Of a stretch of 64,000 bases of DNA, positions 20,086-55,043 are shown piece by piece; positions within the stretch are counted from its first letter, which is position 1; each line of letters starts with the position of its first letter. Location: NCBI GenBank assembly GCA_041651455.1, contig JBAZJG010000001.1, positions 77,173 to 141,172 on the forward strand, given 5' to 3'. The notes under the pieces are model-generated. The model saw only the letters and a program-made list of their open reading frames with translations. It searched no databases and had not been told where the DNA came from. The DNA comes from Candidatus Omnitrophota bacterium (lineage in GTDB: Bacteria; Omnitrophota; Gorgyraeia; Pluralincolimonadales; Pluralincolimonadaceae). The position numbers and the translations under genes are program-made.

Positions 20086-22356
20086 TTGCATAATAACAGG
20101 AACCTGGCTGTAATCTTTGTTGTTGCCGTTGCGGCGCTGCTAACATGCGCGTGCGCGAACGCGGAAGGGAAAGGCGGCATGACGCCCCTTGACTTCGATA
20201 AGGACAGCAAGGAGCCGGTCATCATCAACGGCGACACGGTCGAGTATGACGAGGCCGGGAAGACCGCCAGCGCTAACGGCAACGTATCGATAATATACCA
20301 GGACCTGAAGGTCACCTGCAAGAAGGCGATGTTCCATTCCGACACGAAGGAAGTCATCGCGGAAGGCGACGTCATCCTCACGCAGGACAAGAACGTGTTC
20401 AAGGGCGAGAAGGTCGTCTATAACGTAGAGACGAAGACCGGAACCGTCGTAAAACCGAATGTCTTCATAGACCCGACGTTCTACGGCGGCGGCGAGAAGG
20501 CGGAGAAGCTCAGCAAGGAGCATTATTATATCAAGCGCGGTTATGTGACCACCTGCGACAAGGAGCATCCGCACTACAGGGTCCAATCGAGGCAGCTTAA
20601 CGTATACCTGGACGACAGGGTGACCGCCAGCAATATCCTGATGTTCGTCGGGGACGTCCCGATATTCTATTTCCCGTATTACAGCCATTCCCTTAAGGAC
20701 AAGCATCCCGGCGTCACCATCGTCCCCGGCAAGAACGACGACTGGGGATATTTCGTGCTGACCTCATGGCGCTACTACTTCAACGATAACCTCAGGGGCC
20801 GTATACATGTCGACTACAGGGAAAAGAGGGATTTCGCCTACGGCATAACGACGAATTACGGCACCGAGGACTACGGAAGCGGCATCTTCAGGTTCAATTA
20901 TTTCGACGAGAAGAAGGAGCGCATCTGGAGCAGCAGGCCCGAGCAGGAATCCGACTCGCCGAAAGGCAAGAAGATCGAACGCTACCGCGCGCAGATGAGG
21001 CACAAATGGCAGATGGACCCGATAACGCAGGGAGTGTTCGAGTTCAACAAGATGTCCGACGCGAACGTGATCAAGGATTATTACATAAAAGATTACCAGC
21101 GTGACATGGTCAACAGCAATTACGCCTCCGTCATAAGGGCGGACAAATACTATACGACAAGCCTCCTCGCGCAGAAGAGGATGAACCGGTTCGATTCGGT
21201 CGTGGAATACCTGCCGCAGGTCAAGATAGAGTCGACGAGCATAAAGATAGGCAACACAAGTTTCTATTATGACGGCCTTGCCTCGGCCTCGAACCTCAAC
21301 AAGCTCGAGCCGTCGCCGGCAAACTCCGTGGCCACCACGAACAGGTTCGACACGAGCAACAAGCTGTCGTACCAGTCGACGCTCTTCGGATGGCTTTCGG
21401 TGACCCCGTTCACGGGCACAAGGCAGACCTTCTACAGCAGGGACCTGGAGGGCGACCGCAATTTCATGCGCGGGATCTTCTTTACCGGGACCGACGTCAG
21501 CACGCGTTTTTACAAGACGTATGATTATGATTCCAGGATGTTTAACATGGAGATCAATGGCATAAGACATGTGATCGCGCCGAAAGTCTCGTATTCATAT
21601 ACGCATGAGCCAACCGTAAACAGATCCAAACTCGGGCAGTTTGACGAGGTCGACGATATCGGCTTCCAGAACGCGATAATGCCGTCCCTCGAGAACAAGC
21701 TGCAGACGAAACGTATGGTAGGCGGCAAGATGACGACGGTAGACCTCGCGAGGTTCATGGTCAGCACTAGCTATAATTTCGCAACCGAGACCGATAAGGG
21801 CGGCAAGCTCGACAATTACAACCTCAGCTTCGAGTCGAAACCGTATAACTGGATGAGGCTCCTGTCCAACGCGGTATATAACCCGCACAGGTCGAGGTTC
21901 GAATCGTTCAGCTTCAACTTCGCGGGCAACCCCGAGCTAGATTTCGACAACCAGGACCTCAGGCAGGAAGTGTATACAGACATAACGAAGAAGAGATGGG
22001 GCTATGGCGGCGGCTACAGGTGGGATAACGACCTTGGAAGCCTCATAGAGAGCCAGTTCATGTTCAACGTGACGCCGAAGTGGAAGATAACCGCGTATAA
22101 CAGGTTGGACCTCAAGAGGTTCGGCACCACGATCGACGGGACGCCGAAGAAGTTCATCAACAGCATGGCAGAACAGGAATACAGGATCAGCCGCGACCTG
22201 CATTGCTGGATAGGCGATTTCGTATACAACATATCAAGGGACCACGGGCATACGTTCATGGTGATATTCAGGGTAAAGGCGTTCCCTGATGTCCCGGTCG
22301 AATTCGAGCAGAACTATAACCCGCCGATGTTCGGTTCGGCGATGCCCCCGGGCTAA
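20086..22356 (+). CDS. lptD: LPS-assembly outer membrane protein LptD (OstA)
   Basis: A signal peptide, an N-terminal OstA/LptA-like domain (VIINGDTVEYD...GNVSIIYQDLKVTCKKAMFHSDTKEVIAEGDVILTQ) and a large C-terminal beta-barrel region rich in aromatic residues are present. Confidence 0.8.
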   Translation: MHNNRNLAVIFVVAVAALLTCACANAEGKGGMTPLDFDKDSKEPVIINGDTVEYDEAGKTASANGNVSIIYQDLKVTCKKAMFHSDTKEVIAEGDVILTQDKNVFKGEKVVYNVETKTGTVVKPNVFIDPTFYGGGEKAEKLSKEHYYIKRGYVTTCDKEHPHYRVQSRQLNVYLDDRVTASNILMFVGDVPIFYFPYYSHSLKDKHPGVTIVPGKNDDWGYFVLTSWRYYFNDNLRGRIHVDYREKRDFAYGITTNYGTEDYGSGIFRFNYFDEKKERIWSSRPEQESDSPKGKKIERYRAQMRHKWQMDPITQGVFEFNKMSDANVIKDYYIKDYQRDMVNSNYASVIRADKYYTTSLLAQKRMNRFDSVVEYLPQVKIESTSIKIGNTSFYYDGLASASNLNKLEPSPANSVATTNRFDTSNKLSYQSTLFGWLSVTPFTGTRQTFYSRDLEGDRNFMRGIFFTGTDVSTRFYKTYDYDSRMFNMEINGIRHVIAPKVSYSYTHEPTVNRSKLGQFDEVDDIGFQNAIMPSLENKLQTKRMVGGKMTTVDLARFMVSTSYNFATETDKGGKLDNYNLSFESKPYNWMRLLSNAVYNPHRSRFESFSFNFAGNPELDFDNQDLRQEVYTDITKKRWGYGGGYRWDNDLGSLIESQFMFNVTPKWKITAYNRLDLKRFGTTIDGTPKKFINSMAEQEYRISRDLHCWIGDFVYNISRDHGHTFMVIFRVKAFPDVPVEFEQNYNPPMFGSAMPPG

Positions 22357-22372: not shown

Positions 22373-23671
22373 ATGAAGATAACCGTGATAGGGGCAGGAT
22401 ATGTCGGGCTTGTGACGGCGGCGTGCCTTGCCGACCTCGGTAACGAAGTCACGTGCAACGATATCGACAGCGCGAAGATCGCCCAGCTGAACAGGGGCAA
22501 GATACCGATATACGAGCCGGGCCTCGACGACCTCATAAAGAGGAACCGCAGGGAGCACAGGCTTAAGTTCACGACAAACCTGAAAGGATGCGTAGAGTCG
22601 AGCGGGATAATCTTCATCGCGGTCGGCACGCCTCCGAAGGACAGCGGAGAGGCGGACCTAACGTATATAGAGGCCGTAGCCAGGGATATCGCGAAATACA
22701 TGAAGTCGTACCATCTCGTCGTCGAGAAATCAACGACGCCGGTCGAGACGGGGACCTGGATAAAGAAGACGCTCGAGGTGTATGCGCGCAAGAACGTGAA
22801 ATTCGACGTCGCGTCGAACCCGGAGTTCCTCAGGGAGGGCTCGGCGATAGGCGATTTCATGCATCCTGACAGGATAGTCATTGGCGTCGAGAGCAAGAAG
22901 GCGGAGCAGATGCTTACGGATCTCTACAGGCCTCTGGGCGCTGAGATAATCGTGACTAACATAAACAGCGCGGAGATAATCAAGCACGCGTCGAACTCGT
23001 TCCTCGCAACAAAGATATCGTTTATAAATGCCGTCGCGAACATCTGCGAAAAAGCCGGGGCCGATGTAGAGGAGGTCGCGCGGGGCATGGGGCTCGACAA
23101 GAGGATAGGCAGGTCGTTCCTTGACGCCGGCATAGGGTTCGGAGGGTTCTGTTTCCCGAAGGATATCGAAGCGTTCATACATATATCGGAGAAGATAGGG
23201 TATAATTTCGAATTGCTCAAGTCGGTTAAGAGGATAAACGAGGCGCAGAGGACACTGCTCGTTAAGAAGATAGAAAAGGCGGTCTGGAACATAAAAGGCA
23301 AGACGATAGCGATGCTCGGGCTGGCGTTCAAGCCGAACACCGACGATATGAGGTTCGCGCCGTCCTTGACGATAGCGGAGAAGCTCAGGCAGGAAGGTGC
23401 GCACATTAGAGCTTACGACCCGCAGTCGATGGCAAGGGCGAAGAAGCTGCCGGAGTTCAAGGGCGTGAAGTTCTGCGAAGGCCCGTACGAGGCAGTGAAG
23501 GGCGCGGACTGCACGGTCATCGTGACGGAATGGAACGAATTCAAGGAACTCGACCTTAAGAGGGCGAAGAAGCTGATGAGGCAGCCTGTCGTCGTAGACG
23601 GCAGGAACATATACGAGCCGAAGAAGATGAGGGAACTCGGGTTCAGGTACAGCTGCATCGGGAGGGCGTAG
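22373..23671 (+). CDS. ugd: UDP-glucose 6-dehydrogenase (UDP-glucose/GDP-mannose dehydrogenase family)
   Basis: The NAD-binding site MKITVIGAGYVGLV and a catalytic Cys region GFGGFCFPKD are present; 432 aa. Confidence 0.8.
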   Translation: MKITVIGAGYVGLVTAACLADLGNEVTCNDIDSAKIAQLNRGKIPIYEPGLDDLIKRNRREHRLKFTTNLKGCVESSGIIFIAVGTPPKDSGEADLTYIEAVARDIAKYMKSYHLVVEKSTTPVETGTWIKKTLEVYARKNVKFDVASNPEFLREGSAIGDFMHPDRIVIGVESKKAEQMLTDLYRPLGAEIIVTNINSAEIIKHASNSFLATKISFINAVANICEKAGADVEEVARGMGLDKRIGRSFLDAGIGFGGFCFPKDIEAFIHISEKIGYNFELLKSVKRINEAQRTLLVKKIEKAVWNIKGKTIAMLGLAFKPNTDDMRFAPSLTIAEKLRQEGAHIRAYDPQSMARAKKLPEFKGVKFCEGPYEAVKGADCTVIVTEWNEFKELDLKRAKKLMRQPVVVDGRNIYEPKKMRELGFRYSCIGRA

Positions 23672-23674
23672 AAG

Positions 23675-24121
23675 ATGATAGAAGGCGTGAAGATAAAGAA
23701 GCTGAAGGCGATCCCCGACGAGAGGGGCAAGCTCATGGAGATACTGCGCAACGACGACGATATATTCGAGAAGTTCGGCCAGGTATATTTTACGACCGCG
23801 TTCCCGGGCGTCGTCAAGGCGTGGCATTTCCACAAGAAACAGGACGACCATTTCGTCTGCCTGCAGGGGAAGATAAGGTTGGGGCTCTATGACGCGAGGG
23901 AGGGCTCGAAGACGAAGGGCGAGGTGAATGAGTTCATCCTTTCTCTCGAAGACCCTTTCATGGTAAAGATACCTAAGGGCGTGTACCACGGGTTCAAATG
24001 CATCGCGGACACCGAATCTATGATCCTGAACGTGCCCACCATGGCGTATAACCCGAAGGAGCCGGACGAGTTCAGGATCGACGCATACGATAACGACATA
24101 CCGTTCGACTGGAGGAAATGA
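23675..24121 (+). CDS. RmlC-like cupin, either a short-form dTDP-4-dehydrorhamnose 3,5-epimerase or an FdtA/WxcM-like 3,4-ketoisomerase
   Basis: This small cupin has the His motif KAWHFHKKQDDHFVCLQGK. It sits directly upstream of the rmlA/rmlB/rmlD homologs, where an rmlC is otherwise missing. Confidence 0.55.
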   Translation: MIEGVKIKKLKAIPDERGKLMEILRNDDDIFEKFGQVYFTTAFPGVVKAWHFHKKQDDHFVCLQGKIRLGLYDAREGSKTKGEVNEFILSLEDPFMVKIPKGVYHGFKCIADTESMILNVPTMAYNPKEPDEFRIDAYDNDIPFDWRK

Positions 24122-31079: not shown

Positions 31080-31113
31080 TTGACACGACATAGGTTATAA
31101 CGTAAAATATAAT
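31080..31113 (+). promoter_or_regulatory. Putative sigma70-like promoter (TTGACA-17 nt-TAAAAT, with an overlapping TATAAT) for the internal regulatory module
   Basis: TTGACA lies at 31080-31085, TAAAAT at 31103-31108 and tataat at 31108-31113, all within an 81-nt AT-rich intergenic gap. Confidence 0.35.
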
Positions 31114-31132
31114 CGTTCATACCTAGAACGTT

Positions 31133-31744
31133 ATGCCTACTAACGACAGTTTCCAAAGACCAACTGAAGACTTGCGAAATCTTCAGTTGCTGGAGGAGAT
31201 CTCCAGGGATTCCACCGCTTCCCAGAGAAAATTGTCCGAGAAGCTGGGCGTGGCGCTTGGCGTTACCAACGCGTGCCTGAAGAAGATGGCCAAGAAGGGC
31301 TATATAAAAATAAAGGGCATAAACCATAAGCGCATCTCGTATTACCTGACCCCGGAAGGATTCACCGAGAAGACGAGGCTCACCTACCATTTCCTCGAAT
31401 ATACCGTCAGCTACTACATAAACCTCAAGAAGAACCTCTCCGACAAGATGAAACACATATCGGGGCAGGGCGTAAAACGCGCCGTATTCTACGGCGCGGG
31501 CGACGTGATGGAAGTCGCGTTCGTGATATCGCATGAGGCGAATATCGAGCTGCTTGGGATAATCGACGATGACCCGCAGAAACAAGGGACGAAGAAGTTC
31601 AATTACACGATCGGCGGCCCCGGCGCGATAAAGGAGCTTAATCCCGACGCGATAATAGTCACGTCGATACGATACAAGGACAAGATAATGAAGAACATAA
31701 ACGCTGACCAGGACCTGTCGAAGGTCCCGGTCTTTTATTTTTAG
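31133..31744 (+). CDS. Winged-HTH regulator with a C-terminal Rossmann-like domain of the CoA_binding_3 / WcaJ-N-terminal type
   Basis: An N-terminal wHTH region (LSEKLGVALGVTNACLKKMAKKGYI) and a C-terminal VFYGAGDV...LLGIIDDDPQKQG...AIIVT are present, the latter resembling the N-domain of polyprenyl-P sugar transferases and PglD/NeuD. Confidence 0.45.
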   Translation: MPTNDSFQRPTEDLRNLQLLEEISRDSTASQRKLSEKLGVALGVTNACLKKMAKKGYIKIKGINHKRISYYLTPEGFTEKTRLTYHFLEYTVSYYINLKKNLSDKMKHISGQGVKRAVFYGAGDVMEVAFVISHEANIELLGIIDDDPQKQGTKKFNYTIGGPGAIKELNPDAIIVTSIRYKDKIMKNINADQDLSKVPVFYF

Positions 31745-31752
31745 GCGGAGAT

Positions 31753-32262
31753 ATGATAGCCCCGGCGCTCAATTGGTACGCGGTAAGGACGAGGTCGAAC
31801 TACGAGTTCAAGGTAAGCTGCCTGCTCGGAAAGCGTTCCGTCAATACATTCTATCCCACCGTACTGAAATGGAGCAGGAGGAAGGACAGGAAGATGAAGG
31901 TCGCAAGGCCGCTCTTCCCGGGATATCTTTTCGTCGAATGCCCTGCGAACCCGAGAGACTGGCTCGGAATAAAACAGACGGAAGGAGTCGTGAGCATACT
32001 AGGCTCGAAAGCAACGCCGCTTCCTATACCTGACGACCAGATAGAAAGCGTAAGGAAGATAGTCGAGTCGGGCATCGACCCCATACCTCACCCGTATCTC
32101 AAGGAGGGCGAGAGGGTAGTCGTCGTTGACGGGCCGATGAGGGGAGCCGTAGGGATATTCAACAGGTTCAACGATAAGAAGGGTACGCTCGTGATAACGG
32201 TAGACCTGCTCGGCAGGTCATTGGCCGCGGAAGTGGACACAAACGTAGTCGAAAGGCTGTAG
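31753..32262 (+). CDS. NusG-family paralog (UpxY/RfaH/LoaP-like operon-specific antiterminator)
   Basis: The NGN domain WYAVRTRSNYEFKV and the KOW motif GERVVVVDGPMRGAVGIF are present. The protein is 169 aa and sits at the head of a long glycan operon. Confidence 0.7.
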   Translation: MIAPALNWYAVRTRSNYEFKVSCLLGKRSVNTFYPTVLKWSRRKDRKMKVARPLFPGYLFVECPANPRDWLGIKQTEGVVSILGSKATPLPIPDDQIESVRKIVESGIDPIPHPYLKEGERVVVVDGPMRGAVGIFNRFNDKKGTLVITVDLLGRSLAAEVDTNVVERL

Positions 32263-32362
32263 AACAGGCAAAAACAGACAAGAATATGGCGCTAAGTTAC
32301 AAGAATGTAACCGAAAGGGACGGAGTCCGCGTAGTGAAACGAAGTGTCCCGCCGCAGCGGGA

Positions 32363-33481
32363 TTGGAGGCTATCATGATCCGTTTAGCATATCCTGACCT
32401 CTCGTTCAAGGAGGTCTCGGCTGAGTTGAAGAAGGTCATCGATTCCGGATGGCTGACAAAAGGGCCTAAGACCGAAGAGCTCGAGTCCGCCGCGAAAAAA
32501 TACCTGAAGGTGAAAGAGGCGGTGGCGGTAAGTTCGGGCACCGCCGCGCTGCATCTTTCCCTGCTCGCGCTCGGTATAGGCAGGGGCGACGAGGTGATAG
32601 TCCCGGATTTCACGTTCCCCGCCGCGGCGAACGTGGTAGAGATAGTCGGTGCCAGGGCGGTCCTTGCCGACATAGACAGGGATACGCTTAACATAGATAC
32701 GGGCGACATGCGCCGGAAGATAAACAGGAAGACAAAGGCCGTCATACCGGTGCACCAGTTCGGGCATCCGGCAGAGATGGACGAGATAAAGGCCGCGGCC
32801 GGGAAGCGCGGGATCCGCGTGGTGGAGGACGCCGCATGCGCGTTCGGCGCGAAATATAAGGGCAGGATGTGCGGATCTATCGGCGACCTCGGGTGTTTCA
32901 GCTTCCATCCGCGCAAAGTCATATCGACAGGGGAAGGCGGGCTTATAACCACAAACGACGCGAAGCTCGCGAGGTCGTTGAGGAAGTTCAGGGAACACGG
33001 GATGGAACTCTCCGGCAGCGAGAGGATATTCTCGGAAGCGGGGTTCAATTACAGGATATCGGAGATATCATCGGTGCTGGGCATAGCGCAGGTCGGGAAG
33101 GTCGAGAAGATAATAAGCAGGAGGCTTGCGCTTGCAGTAAGATTCAGGAAGGCGATATCCGGGATAGGCGGCTTGCGCGTGGTCCCGGAGAAAGTTCCGG
33201 CCGGATACAGGCATATATACCAGTCCTTCATAATAGCGGTAGACGGCAGGAAGGAAGTGCCGGGCCTTATATCACACCTGAGGAAAAAAGGCATAGAGGC
33301 GACGATCAGCAACATAGTGATACACCGCCAGCCATATTACAGGAAGAAATACGCTTTGAAGGACCGGGATTATCCCGGCTCGGTCTGGGCTTATGAGCAC
33401 TGCATCGCGCTGCCGTTCCATACGAAGATGGGCGACGGCGATATCGGGTATATCTCAAAAATATTAAGGGAGGCGATATGA
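32363..33481 (+). CDS. DegT-family PLP aminotransferase (WbpE-like UDP-3-keto-sugar aminotransferase)
   Basis: A DegT fold is present, with FSFHPRKVISTGEGG. Confidence 0.82.
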   Translation: MEAIMIRLAYPDLSFKEVSAELKKVIDSGWLTKGPKTEELESAAKKYLKVKEAVAVSSGTAALHLSLLALGIGRGDEVIVPDFTFPAAANVVEIVGARAVLADIDRDTLNIDTGDMRRKINRKTKAVIPVHQFGHPAEMDEIKAAAGKRGIRVVEDAACAFGAKYKGRMCGSIGDLGCFSFHPRKVISTGEGGLITTNDAKLARSLRKFREHGMELSGSERIFSEAGFNYRISEISSVLGIAQVGKVEKIISRRLALAVRFRKAISGIGGLRVVPEKVPAGYRHIYQSFIIAVDGRKEVPGLISHLRKKGIEATISNIVIHRQPYYRKKYALKDRDYPGSVWAYEHCIALPFHTKMGDGDIGYISKILREAI

Positions 33482-35954: not shown

Positions 35955-37238
35955 ATGGAAAATAACATTATTGAGATAAAAGGGGTCTCGAAAAGGTACA
36001 AAATTGGCAGAGGAGACAGATATCTGGCGCTTAGAGACAAGCTCACGTATTTTATGAACCCGTTGAATATGTTCAGGAAGGGAAAACGAAAAAGTCCAGG
36101 CGAAGAATTCTACGCGCTTAAGGATGTTAACCTTAACGTAAGGAAAGGCGAGATAGTCGGTATTATCGGAAGGAACGGTGCCGGTAAGACAACATTGCTT
36201 AAAATTATATCGAGGATTACTTATCCATCCGGGGGTGAGATAAAGATATACGGAAGAGTTGCCAGCCTGCTGGAGGTGGGAACGGGATTCCATCCCGAAT
36301 TGACCGGAAGAGAAAACGTATATTTCAACGGGTCCATCCTCGGGATGAAGAAGAGTGAAATAACCAGGAAGTTTGATGAGATCGTGGCATTTGCGGAGGT
36401 CGAGAAATTCATCGATATGCCGGTTAAGCGGTACTCAAGCGGCATGCAGGTAAGGCTTGCGTTTGCAGTTGCGGCCCATCTCGAACCCGAGATCTTGCTT
36501 ATAGACGAGGTGCTATCGGTAGGAGACATAACGTTCCAGAAGAAAAGCCTCGGGAAGATGGAGAATGTGGCGAGAGAAGGCAGGACCGTTCTTTTTGTTA
36601 GCCATAATATGGGAGCGGTGCAGAGGCTGTGCAACCGCGCCGTTTTGCTGAATAACGGTTTGGTGGTTGAGGACGGCGACGTAAACGAAGTTACGGAAAA
36701 ATATATGAGCTACGGCTTGAATAAGGCCGGGGAAAGGATATGGAGCGAAGAGAACTCCCCCGGAGATGATGTTGTTCGGTTGAGAAGAATTTGTGTAATG
36801 AACGCGAAGGGCGAAATTAAAGTGGAGTTCAATACACACGAAGGGATATTTGTTTCGGTTGAATATGCGGTCTTAAAAAACAACTATCCGTTAAATACTC
36901 TTCTCTATTTCCTCGATGAAGAGGGGATTACGAAATTCGTTTCCATGGATAATCTTGATTCCCCATGGAAGGATACGGTAAGGCCCGCAGGATTATACAG
37001 GTGCACATGTGAAGTCCCTCCTGACCTGTTGAACGAAGGCACTATAAGGATAAATGTAATCGTAACAACGAGCCCGTATAACCTACACGCGAGGGACTCT
37101 GATGTGCTCGTCTTCAAGGTTATAGACGACATGAGCAACAGCGGGGTAAGGGGGAATTACCCGCGTGAATGGCCTGCCGCGGTAGTAAGGCCGAGGCTTA
37201 ACTGGAAAGTGGAGATGTTGAACCATGGAAAAGGATAA
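35955..37238 (+). CDS. wzt: Polysaccharide export ABC transporter ATP-binding protein (Wzt) with a C-terminal glycan-binding domain
   Basis: Walker A GRNGAGKTT, the signature YSSGMQVRLAFA and a Walker B are followed by a C-terminal extension of about 180 aa. Confidence 0.85.
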   Translation: MENNIIEIKGVSKRYKIGRGDRYLALRDKLTYFMNPLNMFRKGKRKSPGEEFYALKDVNLNVRKGEIVGIIGRNGAGKTTLLKIISRITYPSGGEIKIYGRVASLLEVGTGFHPELTGRENVYFNGSILGMKKSEITRKFDEIVAFAEVEKFIDMPVKRYSSGMQVRLAFAVAAHLEPEILLIDEVLSVGDITFQKKSLGKMENVAREGRTVLFVSHNMGAVQRLCNRAVLLNNGLVVEDGDVNEVTEKYMSYGLNKAGERIWSEENSPGDDVVRLRRICVMNAKGEIKVEFNTHEGIFVSVEYAVLKNNYPLNTLLYFLDEEGITKFVSMDNLDSPWKDTVRPAGLYRCTCEVPPDLLNEGTIRINVIVTTSPYNLHARDSDVLVFKVIDDMSNSGVRGNYPREWPAAVVRPRLNWKVEMLNHGKG

Positions 37239-37980
37239 GGACTCTATAATATTGGTCACCTGCGGCGATTCGATAAGTATGCCGCGCTCCTTCGACGGTA
37301 TCCGTTGCGGTCATACTTATTCCGAGATAGTAAAGAAGAGTCTACAGGAAAAATATAAGGATAAAGAGGTATTTCTGTTCAACCGAGCGCTGGGAGGGGA
37401 GAGTATAGCTACCCTTTTCAGGATATTCCAGACCGACATACAGTATTTTGGAAAAGACGGAAGAAAGATACTTATATTGAGCGCAGGAATAGTAGATTGC
37501 GCGCTCAGGCCAATACCTCTTTGGTTGAAAAGAAAGATAGGCGTCATGCCTTCCGTTGTAAGAGAACCGATTATAAAATTCCTGCATAATAATAGAGCCA
37601 GGTTATTCGGATTGGGGCTTAAATGGAGGGTGACGTCTCCCGGAAGGTTCAAGCGCATATACTGCAATATACTTGCTGAAGCCTCCAAAGCATTTTCGAA
37701 AGTGTATGTCTTTACCATTATGCCGACGACTAAAAAGACAGAGAAGCATTCGCCCGGACTTACGTCAAGTATCGACCTCTATAACAGTATAATAAGGGAT
37801 ATAGTGAGCGTGCTTGCTCTCCCTAATATAGAGCTGATCGACATTAATGAGATGATAAACGAGGAAAAATATGACGTTGAAGATGTGGTTAACAATTCAG
37901 ACGGAATCCACCTGACCGTAAAAGGGCACAGAGTATTTGCGGATAAAATACTGGAAAGAGAAAAAAATGAGATCTTGTAA
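37225..37980 (+). CDS. SGNH/GDSL hydrolase family protein (candidate glycan esterase/O-acyltransferase)
   Basis: Block I VTCGDSISM and block V SDGIHLT are present. Confidence 0.6.
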   Translation: MEKDKDSIILVTCGDSISMPRSFDGIRCGHTYSEIVKKSLQEKYKDKEVFLFNRALGGESIATLFRIFQTDIQYFGKDGRKILILSAGIVDCALRPIPLWLKRKIGVMPSVVREPIIKFLHNNRARLFGLGLKWRVTSPGRFKRIYCNILAEASKAFSKVYVFTIMPTTKKTEKHSPGLTSSIDLYNSIIRDIVSVLALPNIELIDINEMINEEKYDVEDVVNNSDGIHLTVKGHRVFADKILEREKNEIL

Positions 37981-38968
37981 AGCCAAGACGATACACGAGA
38001 GATTGACAGGTTTTGACAAGTTCAGCCGTTCCCTGGAACCTCCGTTCCCGAAAGACATGCTTATTGAGCTAACAAACGCATGTAACAATAAATGCCTATT
38101 TTGCGCGAACAGGAAAATGACAAGAAAAACAGGTCATATCAGGATAGGTATTCTGGATAAGGTGTTGTCTCAGGCATATGCTCTCGGGTGCCGGAACGTG
38201 GGTTTTTATACTACCGGCGAACCTTTTATATCAAGCAAACTGCCGCAATGTATCTCAATGGCAAAAAAGAAGGGATTTACGTACATTTATTTGACAACGA
38301 ACGGTGTTCTGGCGACTCCCTCGCGCGTACGAGAAGTGATCGAGGCGGGCCTGGACAGCTTGAAGTTCTCGATAAATGCGGGGACAAGAAAGACGTACAA
38401 AGAGATACATGGTAGGGACGATTTTGACAAAGTAATAGCAAACCTTAAATATGCCTCGGAGTACAGGAAGAAAGTGTCCTCGCCTTTGACCATTCATGTT
38501 TCATACGTGATCACACGAAAAAACGAGAGAGAGCAGAATCGGTTCCGTGAATTGGTAACGCCTTTTGCGGATGACGTGTTCTTCCTGAACGTGAGCAACC
38601 AGGGGGGCATGATGCCCGAGATAAAGAAAGATCTTGTGCCTGAAAATCCGAATAGGAAATTTACGTATTCAAAAAAAGTGCCGTGCAGTATGGTATTCAA
38701 CAGGTTGCATATTACCCACGAAGGGTACGTGTCTGCTTGTTGTGTCGATTTCCAGAATTACTTGATAGTGGCAGACCTTAACAAAGTTGACCTATGGAAA
38801 GCTTGGCGTAGCAGGGTATTTAAGAAAATTAGAAGACTTCATCTGGAGAATATGCTACAAGGGACTCAATGTTATAATTGCGTTTACGACAAGCAGGATA
38901 CGGTCAAGCCTTTGTTGCCTGAATACGCTGCGGCACCAGATAACATGTCAAAAAAAGGAAGGATGTAA
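37967..38968 (+). CDS. Radical SAM / SPASM(twitch)-domain protein
   Basis: The motif CNNKCLFC (Cx3Cx2C) is followed by a C-terminal Cys-rich region CSMVF...SACCVDF...CYNC. Confidence 0.72.
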   Translation: MRSCKAKTIHERLTGFDKFSRSLEPPFPKDMLIELTNACNNKCLFCANRKMTRKTGHIRIGILDKVLSQAYALGCRNVGFYTTGEPFISSKLPQCISMAKKKGFTYIYLTTNGVLATPSRVREVIEAGLDSLKFSINAGTRKTYKEIHGRDDFDKVIANLKYASEYRKKVSSPLTIHVSYVITRKNEREQNRFRELVTPFADDVFFLNVSNQGGMMPEIKKDLVPENPNRKFTYSKKVPCSMVFNRLHITHEGYVSACCVDFQNYLIVADLNKVDLWKAWRSRVFKKIRRLHLENMLQGTQCYNCVYDKQDTVKPLLPEYAAAPDNMSKKGRM

Positions 38969-38969
38969 A

Positions 38970-40304
38970 ATGAATATAGATATTATCATACCTGCCTATT
39001 CGGAAACCGGAAAGGTATATAGGATAAACAGCGTTTTGATCAAGGGCAGGCCAATAATAGATTACACGCTTGAAGCCGCCATTAACGCGCCGTATATCAG
39101 GGGTATATATCTGATAACTGATGACAGCAGCATGCTTGAAAGATACGGATCATTAAAAAAGATAAAGGTGGTCATGCATAAGCATGAGGAAAACGGCGAT
39201 AATATAAGACTTAAGACGATACTGTCAAGCGCGCTTAAAAAGATAAAAGGCGCGCGGCCTGATCTGGCGGTGTTGTTATTAACGTCGGCACCCTTAAGAG
39301 ATGCGGGAATATTAGAATCGGCACTCAATTATGCCAGGTCGTTTGAGGAATATGACAGTATCGTCGGCGTGACAAGGTCGAGGAAATCGAGATTCGGCGT
39401 ATTGAACGTAGGCGCCAATGGGAAGACGGATTATAGCCAGGACAGGACATGTATCAGTTATACGGGCAAGGGGCAGCATTACACCGCCGCGGTAAACGGC
39501 GCACTGTATATCGTGAAGACAAATAGGCTTGGAAAGTTGAACGAAATGCTGTTATCTAGTAGAACCTACGGGTTTGAAATGGACGAAGAGGCAGGTAAGG
39601 ATATAGACTCTTCGGCGGATGTGGCGGTAGCAGAAGCTTTTCTTTCAATGAAAGAGGAACGCTTCGGACAGCATGCAAGGGGAAGGTTTAATGTGCAGCG
39701 CCTTTATATTCATGACGACAGGCAGATGGGGATAAACAGGAATGTCCTTGATGCCATGGCATACGAACGCCATTTTATGAGATATCGGAAATTCTTAAAG
39801 CGCATTTCCGCGTCGGATGACGTACTTGACATTGCATGCGGGAGTGGCTACGGCAGTGAAATATTGGCTTCGAAAGCCAGGTCGGTGACCGGAGTGGATT
39901 GCGACCCGGTCACCATAAAATATGCAGGTCGCCATCATAAGAAAAAAAACATAAATTTCAAAACATCGGCGATTGAAAAATTCAATCCCAAACGAAAGTT
40001 CGACAAAATAATCAGCGTGGAGACGATCGAACACCTTACCGACCCAGAGGGATACATGAAGAAAGCCAGGGGATGGCTCAAGCCCGGAGGACAGATATGG
40101 TTGACATGCCCGCTTTCTGGAATATGTCGGCAGGAAACCGAAAATCCTTTCCATATAAGTGAAATAACGTATGAAATGCTTAAGAGGATAATGAGGAAGT
40201 ATTTTAAGACTACAAGCTTCTATCGACTATCCGGAAAGAAAATATTCTCGGGTGACACCCTGAACAATAAGACGGCGTATATAGTCGCGAAAGGAGCTTT
40301 ATAA
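38970..40304 (+). CDS. Bifunctional fusion of an N-terminal cytidylyltransferase-like nucleotidyltransferase with a C-terminal class I SAM methyltransferase
   Basis: The N-terminus IIIPAYSETGKVYRINSVLIKGRPIIDYTLEAA has an NTP-transferase fold. The C-terminus has MTase motif I VLDIACGSGYGSEILA. The track ORF start at 38787 overlaps the upstream gene and is rejected; the chosen ATG at 38970 has the RBS aaggaagga. Confidence 0.6.
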   Translation: MNIDIIIPAYSETGKVYRINSVLIKGRPIIDYTLEAAINAPYIRGIYLITDDSSMLERYGSLKKIKVVMHKHEENGDNIRLKTILSSALKKIKGARPDLAVLLLTSAPLRDAGILESALNYARSFEEYDSIVGVTRSRKSRFGVLNVGANGKTDYSQDRTCISYTGKGQHYTAAVNGALYIVKTNRLGKLNEMLLSSRTYGFEMDEEAGKDIDSSADVAVAEAFLSMKEERFGQHARGRFNVQRLYIHDDRQMGINRNVLDAMAYERHFMRYRKFLKRISASDDVLDIACGSGYGSEILASKARSVTGVDCDPVTIKYAGRHHKKKNINFKTSAIEKFNPKRKFDKIISVETIEHLTDPEGYMKKARGWLKPGGQIWLTCPLSGICRQETENPFHISEITYEMLKRIMRKYFKTTSFYRLSGKKIFSGDTLNNKTAYIVAKGAL

Positions 40305-41638
40305 TGAAGGATATAGTCAAGTCACCTATACGGACTGACGATAATGATATGGTGCTGTCCTTGCCGATGACTGTACATATCGAACTGACATCTTCGTGTT
40401 GTTTCACATGTAGGCACTGCTATAATTTTTGGAGAAAAGAAAAGATCAACCACGTGTTCATGACAGAGGAAGGCCTCGATAAGATATTGGATGAGCTAAT
40501 AAAGAACGGGGTGATGCATGTGATATTTACCGGGGGAGAGCCTTTCATGAACAGGAAGGTGCTGTTGCGTGGTATCAAAAGGCTGAAAAGCGCCGGTTTA
40601 AGTTCGACATGCAATTCAACACTGGCCGTTTTCAACTCGATAGAAGAACTTAAGGAACTGAAGGAGGCCGGATTAGAGCACATTCTGACATCACTCAACT
40701 CATGCAGCGAAGAGACGAACGATTATCTTGTTACTAAGCGCGGCGCTCAATCTAAGATCATCAAAGGGATGCAGAACGCGATCTCAGCCGGGATACGCAT
40801 AAGCGTGAATATGATTATCTCGGAAAGTAATATAAATGATATTTACAGGACAGGCGAACTTGCAAGCAAGCTTGGAGCGAAGAAATTTTTCGGAACGAGG
40901 GTGGTACCCCATCTTTCCGGAAAGATAGAAGACCAGAAGGAATTTCTTATCTACCAAAAAGAAGCCAGGGTCATACTGGATGAGCTTATAAAGGTTCAGA
41001 ATGATTTTGCTATTCAGGTCGGGACGCTCGTCCCATTCCCATATTGCTTTGTATTCAAGGAGGAAGACAGACAAAAGTATGCCCGGTTCTATTCGCACGG
41101 TTGCCCCGCGGGGAATAAGATGATATCCATAAACGCAAACGGGGAAGCGCACGCCTGCGTCCACGAAAAACAGGGTTATGGGAACATATTGGAGATCGGA
41201 TTGAGGTCTGCCTGGAAGAACATGGAAAAATGGAGGTCCGGCGAGTATTTTCCTTCTGTTTGTAAGGAATGCGAGCTATTTGATGAATGCAATGGAGGCT
41301 GTCGCCTTGCTACTTTGGCATACAAGGGGGATATTTCATCGACTGACAACCTGAGGGTAGGATGGGCAAAAGGGAAAAAGAGAGTTGAAGATTCTGGCGA
41401 GCGGATGATATTGAAAGCAAGATACGCCGTTCCGCAAACCCTACGTTTTAGGAAGGAGAACGGGTTCTCGGTGGTAGACCGTTTTGGATCGGAAGTCCTA
41501 TGTGTGAAGGACAGGATCGCGAAAGTCCTGATGGATCATAAACTAAAGAAAACCGCATTTATCCCAGAAGAAGAAGGCATCTTGGACATAGAGACGTTAA
41601 AAACGCTCATAAATGAAAAACTTCTGGTGAAGGCATAA
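40304..41638 (+). CDS. Radical SAM / SPASM-domain protein
   Basis: The motif CCFTCRHC (Cx3Cx2C) is followed by a C-terminal SPASM-like Cys cluster CVHE...CKECELFDECNGGCR. Confidence 0.72.
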   Translation: MKDIVKSPIRTDDNDMVLSLPMTVHIELTSSCCFTCRHCYNFWRKEKINHVFMTEEGLDKILDELIKNGVMHVIFTGGEPFMNRKVLLRGIKRLKSAGLSSTCNSTLAVFNSIEELKELKEAGLEHILTSLNSCSEETNDYLVTKRGAQSKIIKGMQNAISAGIRISVNMIISESNINDIYRTGELASKLGAKKFFGTRVVPHLSGKIEDQKEFLIYQKEARVILDELIKVQNDFAIQVGTLVPFPYCFVFKEEDRQKYARFYSHGCPAGNKMISINANGEAHACVHEKQGYGNILEIGLRSAWKNMEKWRSGEYFPSVCKECELFDECNGGCRLATLAYKGDISSTDNLRVGWAKGKKRVEDSGERMILKARYAVPQTLRFRKENGFSVVDRFGSEVLCVKDRIAKVLMDHKLKKTAFIPEEEGILDIETLKTLINEKLLVKA

Positions 41639-41655
41639 CAAAAGGATATTCAAGA

Positions 41656-42339
41656 ATGAAGATAAAGCATTATGCCCTCATTCCCGCAAAGAAGGATTCA
41701 AGCCGGTGTAAAAACAAAAACTGGAGGAAATTCAGTAAAAATTGCAACCTTGTTGATTACACCGTAAAGTCGGTACCCGGGAACATGTTTGAGAAAATAA
41801 TTGTATCGACAGATAAAATAGACTACCATCCTCCGCGGCATGTATTGAAACACCTGAGAGACAGGAAATTGTCGAGAAAGGGTTCGTGCGTAAAGGACCT
41901 GATACGAATAATTATACGCGAATACGGATTAAGGGATGAGGACTATCTTTGGCTTCTTAATCCTACTTCGCCGTTTAGGGAAAAAACCGACTTTACTAGA
42001 ATTGCGGATTATATTGGCAGGTATAAGCCGGATTCGGTAATCTCGGTTATAGAAATACACCCATTCATATGGAAAGGGGCCAGCCCTTTGTTTGAGACGA
42101 GAGGGAAACGCAGGAATACGGAGAGTTTTAAGGAAAGGTATTCTGTTGAGAACGGCATGTTCTATGTGATGAATATCGGTTATTTCCGTTCTAAAAGGTC
42201 GTGGTATGGAAAGCGGTCAATGCTGTATAAGCGGCACGGTATCCTGTCGTTTGTGGACATCGATACGGAAGAGGAATTTATAGAAGCAAGAAAACTGACC
42301 GGAATAAAGGACTTCAAAAACCGGGGGAAAAGAGAATGA
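41656..42339 (+). CDS. Acylneuraminate/ulosonate cytidylyltransferase family protein (CMP-sugar synthetase)
   Basis: ALIPAKKDSSRCKNKN and NPTSPFR match the NeuA/KdsB/PseF-type motifs. Confidence 0.68.
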   Translation: MKIKHYALIPAKKDSSRCKNKNWRKFSKNCNLVDYTVKSVPGNMFEKIIVSTDKIDYHPPRHVLKHLRDRKLSRKGSCVKDLIRIIIREYGLRDEDYLWLLNPTSPFREKTDFTRIADYIGRYKPDSVISVIEIHPFIWKGASPLFETRGKRRNTESFKERYSVENGMFYVMNIGYFRSKRSWYGKRSMLYKRHGILSFVDIDTEEEFIEARKLTGIKDFKNRGKRE

Positions 42340-43205
42340 TAAGATTTAAGGACCTGAAGGATGTCTACCTTATAGGAGAAATAGGCATAAACCATAATGG
42401 CGACCTTCAGATTGCAAAGAAACTAATTGACGCTGTATACGCATGCGGATGGAAATGTGTGAAGTTTCAGAAGAGGAATCCGGATGTATGTGTTCCAGAA
42501 AGTCAGAAAAATACAAAGCGTGACACGCCTTGGGGAATGATGACATACCTGGAATACAAGAAACGAACGGAGTTCGGCAGGAAAGAATACGATTATATCG
42601 ACAAATATTGTAGGGAAAAACCGTTGAATTGGACGGCGTCAGTTTGGGATCTAGGCAGCTTTAAATTCATGAAGAAGTACGATCTTCCCTTTATTAAGCT
42701 GCCTTCCGCCAAGATAAATGACATGGAACTGGTAGAGGCTGTTGCGAAGTCCGGGATACCGGTGCTTGCATCGACCGGTATGAGCTCATTGGGCGAAATC
42801 GACAAGCTCGTTAGTATCCTTAGGAAATATTCGTGTGAATTCGCTCTTATGCATACGAATTCAAGCTACCCCACCCCGTTAGAAGAGCTTAACCTGAATT
42901 GCATCGTTACGCTTAGAAAAAGGTATGACTGTGTTATAGGTTATAGCGGCCATGAGTATAACGTGGAACCTACCGTTTACGCGTGCGTTCTGGGAGCCAA
43001 GATAATCGAAAGGCATATAACCCTTGATCATACGATGTGGGGGACAGACCAATCATCAAGCCTTGAAGTGGGCGCCATGTACCTCCTCAATAGAAGAGTG
43101 CAGCATATCGATATGATGCTGGGGAGCGGAATCAAGAAGATAAGTGCAAGCGAAAGAAAAATTATCAATAAGCTGAAGCATAACCTTTGCGAAAGGAGAA
43201 AATAA
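42336..43205 (+). CDS. NeuB-family ulosonic acid (sialic-acid-type) synthase, a short form lacking the SAF domain
   Basis: YLIGEIGINHNGDLQIAKKLID is the NeuB signature; 289 aa. Confidence 0.72.
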   Translation: MIRFKDLKDVYLIGEIGINHNGDLQIAKKLIDAVYACGWKCVKFQKRNPDVCVPESQKNTKRDTPWGMMTYLEYKKRTEFGRKEYDYIDKYCREKPLNWTASVWDLGSFKFMKKYDLPFIKLPSAKINDMELVEAVAKSGIPVLASTGMSSLGEIDKLVSILRKYSCEFALMHTNSSYPTPLEELNLNCIVTLRKRYDCVIGYSGHEYNVEPTVYACVLGAKIIERHITLDHTMWGTDQSSSLEVGAMYLLNRRVQHIDMMLGSGIKKISASERKIINKLKHNLCERRK

Positions 43206-43864
43206 TGTTGGGGCCGGATTTCAATAAACAATACGAATATGAGAACAGTTTCTACCTTACAGCGCCCATTAACAGGATTAGCAAATTTGTCACTCATCTT
43301 GATCTTTTCAGGAGGATTTCCGGATTGTCAGGAGAGATCGTGGAATGCGGCGTATTCAAAGGAGTGTCGCTGTCCAGATTGATTAAATTCAGAGCATTGT
43401 TTGAAAATCCGCAAAGTAGAAAGATAATAGCATTTGATACCTTCGGAGATTTTCCGGAAGCAAAATACAAGGCTGATGTCAAAAAAAGGCGACAATTTAT
43501 CTCAGAAGCAGGAAGCAAAAGCATAAGCAGGGATGAATTGATCTGCATCCTGAAAAAGCTGGATCTCTACCAGAACATCGAGCTCGTGGCAGGCAATATA
43601 TTGAAAACGGTGCCGCGCTACGTTTCAAGGAACAGACATCTGAAGATAGCCTTGCTGCATATAGATGTTGATCTGTATGAAGCGACGGATATATGCCTAA
43701 AGGAACTGTACCCGTTGGTCGTAAAGGGCGGGATAGTGGTATTGGATGATTACGGCGCCTTTCCCGGAGCTAATAAAGCCATTGACGATTATTTTGTGAA
43801 TAAGAAGGTCAGAATTAAAAAATACCCTTATTCCAACGCCATATCATATGTGCAAGTCGATTGA
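43205..43864 (+). CDS. TylF/MycF-family SAM-dependent O-methyltransferase
   Basis: IVECGVFKGVSLSRL and the C-terminal VVLDDYG are present, and the TAATG overlaps the upstream stop. Confidence 0.62.
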   Translation: MLGPDFNKQYEYENSFYLTAPINRISKFVTHLDLFRRISGLSGEIVECGVFKGVSLSRLIKFRALFENPQSRKIIAFDTFGDFPEAKYKADVKKRRQFISEAGSKSISRDELICILKKLDLYQNIELVAGNILKTVPRYVSRNRHLKIALLHIDVDLYEATDICLKELYPLVVKGGIVVLDDYGAFPGANKAIDDYFVNKKVRIKKYPYSNAISYVQVD

Positions 43865-44379
43865 GAAAGGGCGGTGATAAAATGAGAATACATAAGTATT
43901 ACGATCTTAAGAAGGTAAAATTGATAGTATATGATTTCGACGGTGTTTTTACCGATAATAAGGTCATTCTTATGGAAGACGGGAAAGAAGGTGTTATAGT
44001 AAACAGGTCGGATGGGCTTGCGGTATCAATCTTCAAGAAAATGGGTATTCCTCAAATTATATTGTCTACCGAAAGAAATCCCATAGTTAAGGCCAGATCG
44101 AGGAAACTTGGCATACCAGCCTTGACCTGCGTTAACGATAAGAAGAAGGATCTCTCTTCATATTGCAGGAAACTCAATATCCCGCTGCATTCCGTGGCTT
44201 ATATCGGTAATGATATCAACGACTATGAAGCGATGTTATGCGTGGGATTCCCGATAGCGCCGGCGGATGCGAACAGCCGCATAAAAGGCATAGCGGAAAT
44301 AGTAACTAAAACACGAGGCGGGGAAGGAGTTGCCCGAGAGTTACTCGATATATTTACCCGCGGAATGGGAGTATGCTGA
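43861..44379 (+). CDS. HAD-IIIA phosphatase of the KdsC family (ulosonate-phosphate phosphatase)
   Basis: IVYDFDGVFTD and GNDINDYEAM are present; the protein is about 165-172 aa. Confidence 0.7.
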   Translation: MRKGGDKMRIHKYYDLKKVKLIVYDFDGVFTDNKVILMEDGKEGVIVNRSDGLAVSIFKKMGIPQIILSTERNPIVKARSRKLGIPALTCVNDKKKDLSSYCRKLNIPLHSVAYIGNDINDYEAMLCVGFPIAPADANSRIKGIAEIVTKTRGGEGVARELLDIFTRGMGVC

Positions 44380-46193: not shown

Positions 46194-46196
46194 GGA

Positions 46197-51104: not shown

Positions 51105-51828
51105 ATGCAGGACGGTCGCAATGATACCCGCGCGCATGGGCAGCACAAGGCTCGCTATGAAGAACCTCGCGTTGATAGGCGGGAAACCGATGATCTACTA
51201 CGCGATAAAGGCGGCGAAGGATTCGGGCGTATTCGACAGGGTGGTCATAAATTCGGAAGACAGCGTATTCGCGAAGATAGCGAAGCGTTACGGCGCGGAA
51301 TTCTACCTGCGCCCGCGGGAATGGGCGACCTCGGCCGCGAAATCCGATTTCGTGGTATATGATTTCGTCAGGAATAATCCGTGCGATGTGGTCGCGTGGG
51401 TAAACCCGACGTCGCCGCTGCAGACGGCGGACGAAGTAAGGGGCGCCATGGAATATTTCGTGAAAGAGAAGCTCGATTCGATGATAACCGTCAAGGACGA
51501 GCAGGTCCATTGCGTATATAAGGGAAAGCCGGTCAATTTCAACCTGAAGGAGGTCTTCGCGCAGACGCAGGATTTGGTCCCGGTACAGCCCTTCGTATAT
51601 TCGGTGATGGCGTGGAAGACGGGAAAGTTCATGAAAGAGTTCGAAAGGAAGGGTTTTGCGTTCTTTTGCGGTAAGACGGGGTATTACCCGGTAAGCAAGC
51701 TAGCGGGCATAATAATCAAAAGGCAGGAAGACCTGATGGCCGCGGACCTTATGCTGCGGTCTATCTCAAAAAAAGGCGGGTACAAGCTGCGCTACGACAA
51801 GCTCGCCGTAAAGGGCAGGAGAGGATAA
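51091..51828 (+). CDS. Acylneuraminate/ulosonate cytidylyltransferase family protein
   Basis: VAMIPARMGSTRLAMKNL and NPTSPLQ are present. Confidence 0.68.
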   Translation: MAKRKCRTVAMIPARMGSTRLAMKNLALIGGKPMIYYAIKAAKDSGVFDRVVINSEDSVFAKIAKRYGAEFYLRPREWATSAAKSDFVVYDFVRNNPCDVVAWVNPTSPLQTADEVRGAMEYFVKEKLDSMITVKDEQVHCVYKGKPVNFNLKEVFAQTQDLVPVQPFVYSVMAWKTGKFMKEFERKGFAFFCGKTGYYPVSKLAGIIIKRQEDLMAADLMLRSISKKGGYKLRYDKLAVKGRRG

Positions 51829-51829
51829 T

Positions 51830-55032: not shown

Positions 55033-55043
55033 AAGGGCTTTAT

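Follow-up and report, generated by a model that had tools for sequence, protein, structure and literature searches.

The 64,000-nt stretch analysed here (the window) derives from a Candidatus Omnitrophota bacterium (GenBank assembly GCA_041651455.1, contig JBAZJG010000001.1, positions 77,173 to 141,172 of the forward strand). Within a glycan locus, it carries a compact module on the plus strand, consisting of a sigma70-type promoter (31080-31108), a gene encoding a 203-residue winged helix-turn-helix (wHTH) regulator (31133-31744), a gene encoding a 169-residue specialised NusG paralog of the UpxY family (31753-32262), and a leader (32263-32374) in which an ops-like site is found (32296-32329). 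As proposed in the initial annotation, the module splits the glycan locus, with nucleotide-sugar genes located 5' and a 28-gene assembly and export operon located 3'. The module is probably a two-tier control cassette for this long operon, in which the UpxY-family factor would load at the ops-like site. The mechanism by which a specialised NusG paralog locates its operons is, to our knowledge, established only for E. coli RfaH and, since 2024, for Bacteroides UpxY. The present locus and about 30 relatives suggest that the same principle holds in little-studied, mostly uncultured phyla (Omnitrophota, Nitrospinota, Nitrospirae and Desulfobacterota): a paused polymerase would show a GCG-N-AGC mini-hairpin beside a specific upstream block, and one almost invariant site would mark polysaccharide operons.

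The paralog matches the Pfam NusG NGN domain (3e-22, residues 7-100). Pfam called no KOW domain on this protein; an AlphaFold2 model (predicted local distance difference test, pLDDT, 84.5) features the NGN domain followed by a C-terminal beta-barrel KOW at residues 121-168, and the fold matches in the PDB are NusG and RfaH. The score against the hidden Markov model (HMM) of the UpxY family in NCBIfam (NF033644) is 108.3 bits, above the cutoff of 100. In contrast, the protein fails the cutoffs of the housekeeping nusG equivalog TIGR00922 (67.4 vs 135.7 bits), the RfaH equivalog TIGR01955 (80.7 vs 144.5 bits) and LoaP NF033641 (77.2 vs 125 bits). The proposal that this is a specialised NusG-family protein with NGN and KOW domains is thus borne out, the KOW domain being seen in the model and not by Pfam. 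The closest homologs (70-92% identity) are found in Candidatus Omnitrophota metagenome-assembled genomes (MAGs) and are named "UpxY family transcription antiterminator" by NCBI, while homologs at 45-55% identity are found in Nitrospinota and in anammox bacteria. A basic hairpin, WSRRKDRK, is invariant across the alignment of the family. Judged by its sequence, the paralog is a new member of a known family, already so named in databases.

Whether the protein groups with housekeeping NusG had been raised in the initial annotation. Displacement of a housekeeping NusG from secE-nusG-rplK, which would leave the module without any operon-specific role, is extremely unlikely. In its favour, the family profile ranks E. 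coli NusG (79 bits) above RfaH (61 bits) among PDB sequences, and the KOW domain is modelled as a normal beta-barrel. However, the nusG cutoff is failed by a wide margin and the UpxY-family cutoff is passed, NCBI assigns the homologs to the UpxY family, and the family is found in polysaccharide loci of several phyla, beside a conserved leader motif.

The leader separating the paralog stop codon from the next start codon had been taken to span 100 nt (32263-32362), a figure that rests on a TTG start at 32363. The DegT aminotransferase gene starts instead at ATG 32375, which is preceded by a GGAGG Shine-Dalgarno sequence (32365-32369), so that the leader spans 112 nt. Homologous proteins begin with MIRLAYPD at the matching ATG, and the public gene call is 368 residues long. 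In place of a canonical ops, the leader features the sequence GGGACGGAGTCCG, and the non-template strand of the site reads GAAAGGGACGGAGTCCGCG. The ops-like site consists of four parts: a hairpin, GTTACA-agaa-TGTAAC (32296-32311), in which 32296-32301 pairs with 32306-32311; the block TGTAACCGAAAGGG; a mini-hairpin of the GCGNAGC class, ACGGAGT (32320-32326); and a C|G step. The first hairpin is a candidate pause hairpin or upstream-duplex recognition block. The core, A-TGTAACCGAAAGGG-ACGGAGT-CCG, maps to 32305-32329, and exactly one copy was found in the window by pattern and profile searches.

The canonical 12-nt ops, GGCGGTAGnnTG, has no exact match in the window, and its two one-mismatch matches, both inside genes, compare with 3.7 expected. 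The initial annotation was therefore correct in reporting no canonical ops, and mistaken in seeing weak resemblances only, since a conserved site of the opsX type is present at 32296-32329. The 7-mer GCGNAGC alone is not enriched in the window (39 occurrences vs 48.7 expected); significance is attributed to the 25-nt motif and to its conservation.

A scan of the genome collection with the paralog alignment yielded 80 loci (individual loci and contigs are denoted by L numbers). The element found in Omnitrophota leaders, AAGTTACAnGnATGTAACCGAARGGGGCGRAGC, is retained even in front of different downstream genes. The extended form of the consensus reads A-TGTAACCGA-NR-GGGCGRAGC-TnTR. Pattern and profile searches located the motif in Nitrospinota (L011-13), Nitrospirae (L014), Desulfovibrionales (L021) and many delta-type MAGs, and it occurs in five phylum-level groups. 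All nhmmer matches at E < 0.02 (31/31) are on the strand of the paralog. A conserved leader motif in related loci, which the initial annotation had suggested looking for, is thus found as a 25-nt core in about 31 loci of several phyla. The motif is mostly located 40-260 nt 3' of the paralog stop codon; in some loci it lies 2-5 kb downstream, and in L028 and L062 it is directly 5' of the paralog gene.

An independent metagenome scan with TGTAACCRANRGGGCGRAGC retrieved at least 120 contigs. In this set, the motif is intergenic in 79% of cases, compared with 34% of random positions, and falls within long stop-free stretches in 21% vs 66%. Among the metagenome matches listed, sugar epimerases/dehydratases, Poly_export/SLBB, Polysacc_synt_2 and NusG are over-represented in the first downstream open reading frames (ORFs). 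Conservation extends to positions that the search pattern did not include (T21, 0.78; T23, 0.84; R24, 0.87) and decays to background beyond them. Rfam searches of the whole window (gathering thresholds), of the module (E <= 10) and of 14 motif-bearing loci returned no relevant family, JUMPStart included. No account of the motif was found in the searchable literature, including that on NusG paralogs, and searches with motif strings returned unrelated primer matches only.

Partial repetitions of the core were observed in some metagenome contigs. In L196 (~610-680) and L161 (~1280-1345), a second, partial copy (...GAGAGGGCGAAGCT...) is located 20-40 nt from the full one, and these pairs look like tandem ops-like sites. 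About 20 Syntrophales-type loci (L034-L079) feature a conserved stretch with CCCGCCTG, 100-200 nt 3' of the paralog stop codon. This stretch was considered as a second leader motif and rejected; on the opposite strand it looks like a conserved coding sequence, which most likely belongs to a convergent gene. Several of these loci carry an ops-like core 4-5 kb further 3'.

The hairpin GTTACA/TGTAAC is present in the window and in L001-L007, and compensatory variants occur in L062 (CGATTACA/TGTAATCG), L014, L021 and L026. Over 131 instances, the sequence 5' of the core shows more complementarity to it than controls do (mean best stem 5.9 vs 5.0, p = 7e-7). Complementarity occurs in two registers, GGTTACA..TGTAACC, which is used by the window, and CCCTCGG..CCGAGGG. 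Within the core, GCGRAGC can form a stem of 2-3 bp with a GNA loop (pairing 96.6%). The outer pair is G-T in 17 instances, A-T in 5, G-C in 4 and another combination in 3, and the ACGGAGT of the window represents the only compensatory change, from G:C to A:T. Elemental pauses have a consensus with GG at -11/-10 and T-3 G-2 Y-1 G+1. If T23 is taken as the RNA 3' end, the motif consensus, including G13 and G14, presumably fits this pattern. In the window, the corresponding step is C32328|G32329, with GG at -11/-10, and RNA polymerase is predicted from the sequence to pause at about this position.

The remainder of the leader is less constrained. The initial annotation had pointed to small GC hairpins; the one it cited, cccgc-cgca-gcggg (32348-32361), is present as tCCCGC-cgca-GCGGGa (32347-32362), but belongs to the variable, unconserved part of the leader, being shared only by the window and the 96%-identical L001 and absent or replaced elsewhere. 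The fold of the whole leader RNA is not better than that of shuffled sequence (z = -1.05). From the ops-like core to the start codon, the leader is hypervariable, for instance in L002 (2030-2137) and L003 (6580-6620). L002 features two tandem copies of a GC-rich unit of about 36 nt, GTCCTATTGCGATTGCTTGCTGAGGACTGC, and L004 and L005 have none, the core abutting the start codon.

A 30-codon upstream ORF (uORF), MALSYKNVTERDGVRVVKRSVPPQRDWRLS*, is located at 32286-32378 on the plus strand. It lacks a Shine-Dalgarno sequence, reads through the ops-like core, and terminates at a TGA that overlaps the DegT start codon (ATGA). In 9/10 Omnitrophota loci, an ATG is found exactly 20 nt 5' of TGTAACC. 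The length of the uORF ranges from 14 to 39 codons, and its stop codon overlaps the start of the next gene in 8 Omnitrophota loci (ATGA, TAATG, TTGA), despite indels in the leader. In the other phyla, no uORF over the motif was found.

It could be argued that the conserved nucleotides reflect a small leader peptide rather than a nucleic-acid signal. The exact 20-nt spacing of the ATG, a frame that stays open to the start of the next gene in 8-9 Omnitrophota loci, and the spacing of the variable motif positions 10, 22 and 25 by multiples of three all agree with this idea. Nevertheless, we deem it very unlikely. Outside Omnitrophota, an in-frame upstream ATG is found in 32/116 cases in the frame of the uORF and in 33/116 in the other open frame, and some loci have in-frame stops (e.g., L019). 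Moreover, the peptide is unconserved beyond the motif and, in the genome-derived set, third-codon positions within the motif are as invariant as the others. The uORF was therefore rejected as the cause of the cross-phylum conservation, failing as it does outside Omnitrophota.

The closest parallel to the ops-like site is found in Bacteroides, where UpxY is recruited to RNA polymerase paused at opsX sites of about 40 bp (Saba et al. 2024, PMC11685472). Three components make up an opsX site: a pause hairpin in the nascent RNA, sequence-specific duplex DNA upstream, and a hairpin in the non-template strand, 5'-YGCGNAGCR; GCGGTAGC is present in E. coli ops (PMC11685472). The locus analysed here is similar in several respects. 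The paralog scores above the UpxY-family HMM cutoff, and its gene belongs to the polysaccharide locus that the protein presumably controls; in the leader site, of about 35-40 nt, an upstream hairpin or duplex block precedes a GCG-N-AGC mini-hairpin and a pause-like step; and the NGN domain has a basic beta-hairpin, WSRRKDRK here and YKRR[R/K]R in class-1 UpxY. The two systems also differ. The site in the window is 3' of the paralog gene, whereas in Bacteroides it is in the 5' leader upstream of the gene, an order shared by two relatives, L028 and L062, and by six metagenome loci. The window has no invertible promoter, and no UpxZ, the partner being a wHTH-Rossmann regulator with an operator of its own. 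Moreover, one near-invariant site occurs across phyla, in contrast to the many locus-specific variants of Bacteroides, and in Omnitrophota the site is overlain by a uORF specific to this group.

RfaH and ops (JUMPStart) offer a second parallel, in that a specialised NusG paralog is associated with long, partly low-GC surface-polysaccharide operons. The core GGCGR-AGCTGT corresponds to ops GGCGGTAGCGTG minus one loop base, with the same predicted GG start at -10/-11, and most of the listed metagenome copies of the motif are unlinked to a paralog gene, as is ops to rfaH. In contrast, the paralog fails the RfaH HMM cutoff, the canonical 12-mer is absent, the site extends over more sequence (the hairpin and about 25 conserved nt), the KOW domain is predicted to be a beta-barrel and not an alpha-hairpin, and the paralog of the window is encoded in cis before its presumed target. 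LoaP, known from antibiotic clusters of Firmicutes and Actinobacteria, is likewise a NusG paralog encoded beside a long biosynthetic operon, and a leader hairpin has been implicated in its recruitment. However, the LoaP cutoff is failed, the operon in the window directs glycan rather than polyketide synthesis, and the core looks like an ops-type non-template hairpin and not like an RNA stem-loop alone. The parallel with UpxY/UpxZ and RfaH/ops drawn in the initial annotation is hence stronger than claimed as far as UpxY and RfaH/ops are concerned, but does not extend to UpxZ.

The comparison with LoaP raises the question of whether the leader element acts as RNA, the nascent hairpin or sequence being bound by the paralog, or by another RNA-binding regulator, and mediating processive antitermination or translational control. 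The mini-hairpin shows a pattern typical of RNA helices, its outer pair being G-U in most cases and A-U or G-C in others, and complementarity between the core and the sequence 5' of it is enriched, in two registers. Furthermore, LoaP is reported to use a leader RNA hairpin, as cited in a passage of PMC11685472. We nonetheless hold recognition as RNA to be rather unlikely. The primary sequence is near-invariant across phyla, beyond what mere pairing potential would demand; the GCG-N-AGC core has its counterpart in the non-template DNA hairpins of ops and opsX; and Bacteroides class-1 UpxY recognised upstream DNA, not hairpin RNA (PMC11685472). Rfam has no matching family. A CsrA-type GGA hairpin in particular is ruled out by copies with a GAA loop, which account for 23% of the listed metagenome copies and about 40% of the genome-locus copies.

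Alternatively, the motif may be a promoter or transcription-factor site of the downstream operon, for instance an extracytoplasmic function (ECF) sigma promoter with TGTAAC as its -35 element. TGTAAC resembles the AAC-type -35 elements of ECF sigma factors, whose promoters typically have a spacing of 16-17 nt. The motif is strand-specific, intergenic and located 5' of operons, and most of the listed metagenome copies have no adjacent paralog, which would suit a promoter. In L004, however, the start codon follows GGAGCT by 2 nt, and several other loci also start within a few nt. Because the motif abuts the start codon, it must lie inside the transcript in L004 and is not the promoter of that gene; the promoter reading of the motif was rejected on these grounds. 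In addition, conservation within the motif is highest in what would be the spacer, AAC and the conserved TnT are 14 nt apart rather than 16-17 nt, and the Omnitrophota uORF reads through the motif. Overall, we regard a promoter as improbable.

Loading of the UpxY-family paralog at a DNA element is the interpretation that we favour for the ops-like site. Elongation control, the second tier of the putative cassette, would begin when polymerase reaches the site, about 45-65 nt after the paralog stop codon, and meets the upstream block or hairpin (GTTACA..TGTAACCGA), the G run, the GCGNAGC-class mini-hairpin (ACGGAGT) and the pause-like pyrimidine|G step. Polymerase would pause near 32328, and the mini-hairpin would be displayed on the non-template strand. 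The NGN domain of the paralog could then bind this hairpin together with the adjacent upstream DNA, and the paralog would replace housekeeping NusG. We infer that the resulting complex would resist pausing and Rho-dependent termination over the 31-kb, partly low-GC, 28-gene operon. Rho or pausing is the presumed target of antitermination.

Several observations weigh against this mechanism. No convincing intrinsic terminators were found inside the operon. The KOW domain is a beta-barrel in the AlphaFold2 model, a single prediction, and thus gives no sign of RfaH-type autoinhibition. The copy of the site in the window is the most deviant of all (nhmmer E = 0.007), and 17 nt separate the end of its hairpin from the predicted pause, a greater distance than in classical pause hairpins (-11 to -14). 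Just one covariation event is seen in the mini-hairpin, whose outer pair is mostly G-T, and the shuffle control is exceeded only moderately (16/500); covariation this thin cannot carry the argument alone. Finally, a NusG-like gene is present on 18/120 listed metagenome contigs (about 15%), within the contig DNA available. The link between motif and paralog consequently rests on the 30-odd linked loci, and the site also marks loci unlinked to the gene of the factor, like E. coli ops.

In Omnitrophota, loading may have a further consequence. The uORF, which lacks a Shine-Dalgarno sequence, starts 42 nt 5' of the predicted pause and ends on the first start codon of the operon; it may, if translated, let the loaded paralog set up transcription-translation coupling. 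Overlapping genes would then propagate the coupling, a speculative step based on analogy. A broader proposal, which we put forward as a tentative possibility and with far less confidence than the cassette itself, is that the 25-nt element A-TGTAACCGA-NR-GGGCGRAGC-TnTR might be an ancient cross-phylum recruitment code of a large clade of UpxY-like paralogs and the missing link between ops (GCGGTAGC) and opsX (YGCGNAGCR). In Omnitrophota it might also act as a coupling launcher, the paralog handing a pioneer ribosome to the mRNA via the uORF, to be passed on at the ATGA overlap to the first of the 28 genes. If loading at the site is correct, the motif would be a sequence tag from which the regulon of such factors could be predicted straight from metagenomes, and an evolutionary bridge between ops and opsX. 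The module would likewise be a compact, portable cassette for very long operons, made of a sensor-regulator, an elongation factor and a loading site. The conserved uORF provides a concrete handle on whether such factors load ribosomes.

The promoter of the module, TTGACA-17-TAAAAT, matches 11/12 consensus positions, with the -35 hexamer at 31080-31085, a 17-nt spacer and the -10 hexamer at 31103-31108, on the plus strand. A sigma70-like pattern alone is not above chance, as 8 sites were found in 8 kb and 7.0 are expected. Both hexamers and the 17-nt spacing are, however, invariant in ten related Omnitrophota loci (L001-L010), and this phylogenetic footprint makes the promoter credible despite the chance-level pattern match, in agreement with the promoter first claimed at this site. 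The spacer includes an 8-bp perfect palindrome, GTTATAAC (31094-31101), and a T-rich tract is found immediately 5' of the promoter.

A second palindrome, CGTTC-N7-GAACG (31114-31130), starts approximately at the predicted transcription start site (about 31115), just after the -10 hexamer. Across the related loci, its distance to the -10 is fixed, while 0 to 28 nt separate it from the ATG. Exact copies of the pattern number 14 in 1.38 Mb (the window, the related loci and the metagenome contigs), compared with 1.3 expected. Eleven of the 14 copies are at module promoters, namely in the window, in nine Omnitrophota loci and in L021; another is in L153, an Omnitrophota-type metagenome contig, and the copies in L040 and L077 look like chance matches. 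Near-variants of the palindrome adjoin TTGACA in L063, L068 and L075. In these delta-type loci, the palindrome sits in the promoter spacer and is hence untranscribed, which makes a DNA operator the simplest reading. Presumably, it is the binding site of the co-encoded wHTH regulator. In the window, the palindrome at +1 is followed by GTTAT, and ATAACGT...ACGTTAT forms a larger inverted repeat around the -10 hexamer (31094-31134). With transcription starting near 31115, the leader of the wHTH mRNA is 18 nt long and has no Shine-Dalgarno sequence.

The wHTH regulator claimed in the initial annotation is confirmed as a 203-residue ORF that matches Pfam HTH_24 (6e-11). The N-terminal wHTH is followed by a long helix (residues 80-111) and by a small Rossmann-like C-terminal domain with the motifs YGAG and IIDDD; precomputed Pfam assignments are HTH_24 and PF22674 (C2185-like_N). 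In the AlphaFold2 model, the C-terminal domain has a pLDDT of about 90, and the N-terminal half is of low confidence. The best fold matches in the PDB are Rex and RSP (3wg9, 5zz5; E = 3e-5), with a TM score of only 0.35. The C-terminal domain alone best matches nucleotide-sugar enzyme domains (3nkl, TcaB9/KijD1 and WbaP). The sequence matches no Rex Pfam domain, and its score against TIGR04176 (MarR_EPS), 69.3 bits, is below the cutoff of 88, the match spanning residues 15-104 only. UpxZ was not returned by Pfam or NCBIfam for the wHTH neighbour of the paralog, and Pfam assigned the DegT gene to aminotransferase families only. As modelled, the regulator resembles Rex repressors in combining, within about 200 residues, a wHTH and a Rossmann-like domain, and also in the presumed palindromic operator that overlaps the promoter. 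It resembles the exopolysaccharide (EPS)-associated MarR regulators of TIGR04176 in its linkage to an EPS locus. By sequence, however, it belongs to neither group. The C-terminal domain is of the small NeuD/WbaP/CapD-N type (PF22674), nearer to nucleotide-sugar enzyme domains, and the operator half-sites are unlike the Rex box.

Homologs of the regulator are paired with the paralog in three phylum-level lineages (Omnitrophota, Nitrospinota and Desulfobacterota-type MAGs), and the pair is kept in 10/10 Omnitrophota loci, whatever the downstream gene, together with the promoter and the two non-coding elements. At the first tier of the proposed cassette, initiation, the sigma70-type promoter would drive the wHTH gene, the paralog gene and the operon behind them. 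The palindrome at +1 would serve as the operator of the Rex-like regulator, whose small Rossmann-like domain, we infer, senses a nucleotide or nucleotide-sugar. By the searchable literature and Rfam, four features are new: the near-invariant cross-phylum site, its place after the gene of the factor, the Rex-like partner with its operator, and the uORF.

The operon downstream of the module comprises 28 plus-strand ORFs (32375-63805) separated by gaps of no more than 25 nt, in line with the 28 or more genes initially counted. Besides the DegT aminotransferase, it encodes a GFO oxidoreductase, a hexapeptide acetyltransferase, a Wzm/Wzt ABC exporter, radical-SAM and B12-radical-SAM enzymes, methyltransferases, NeuB, four cytidylyltransferases and GT2 glycosyltransferases. 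It is thus a glycan operon of the ABC-transporter type, and the paralog is encoded at the head of a polysaccharide operon, flanked by nucleotide-sugar genes on its 5' side and by Wzm/Wzt, GT2 and NeuB genes on its 3' side. Inside the operon, the GC content of about 0.54 drops to 0.43-0.47 at 36-48 kb. This low-GC island (36000-48000) includes Wzt, a GDSL esterase, radical-SAM enzymes, methyltransferases, NeuB and a 606-residue ORF without a Pfam match, and has the appearance of a serotype-variable block subject to horizontal exchange. Three B12-binding radical-SAM genes (48415, 57481 and 61327), two other radical-SAM/SPASM genes and four cytidylyltransferase domains are found at 48415-62835. 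The pathway encoded there is unusually rich in modification functions and strongly dependent on sugars activated with cytidine monophosphate.

Upstream of the module, the region from 22.4 to 31 kb carries the nucleotide-sugar genes ugd, rmlA, rmlB and rmlD, a gene for a second UDP-sugar dehydrogenase, epimerase genes and a DegT gene. An apparent gap of 447 nt (23671-24118) contains a 148-residue ORF, which we read as putatively rmlC-like. Directly before the nucleotide-sugar genes, a 756-residue ORF (20086-22356) shows only a weak LptD_N-like match (E = 4e-4), and may encode an outer-membrane component related to glycan or lipopolysaccharide transport. The first 22 kb of the window are occupied by housekeeping genes, including a miaB-like gene, miaA, hflX, hrcA-grpE-dnaK-dnaJ, accD, two GGDEF genes and a ROK kinase gene. 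At the left end, a 1112-residue ORF (22-3360; GC content 0.42) has no Pfam match at E <= 0.001. The two GGDEF genes encode consecutive GAF-GGDEF diguanylate cyclases (16203-19096) and lie a few kb 5' of the glycan locus, making a cyclic di-GMP link to polysaccharide production possible.

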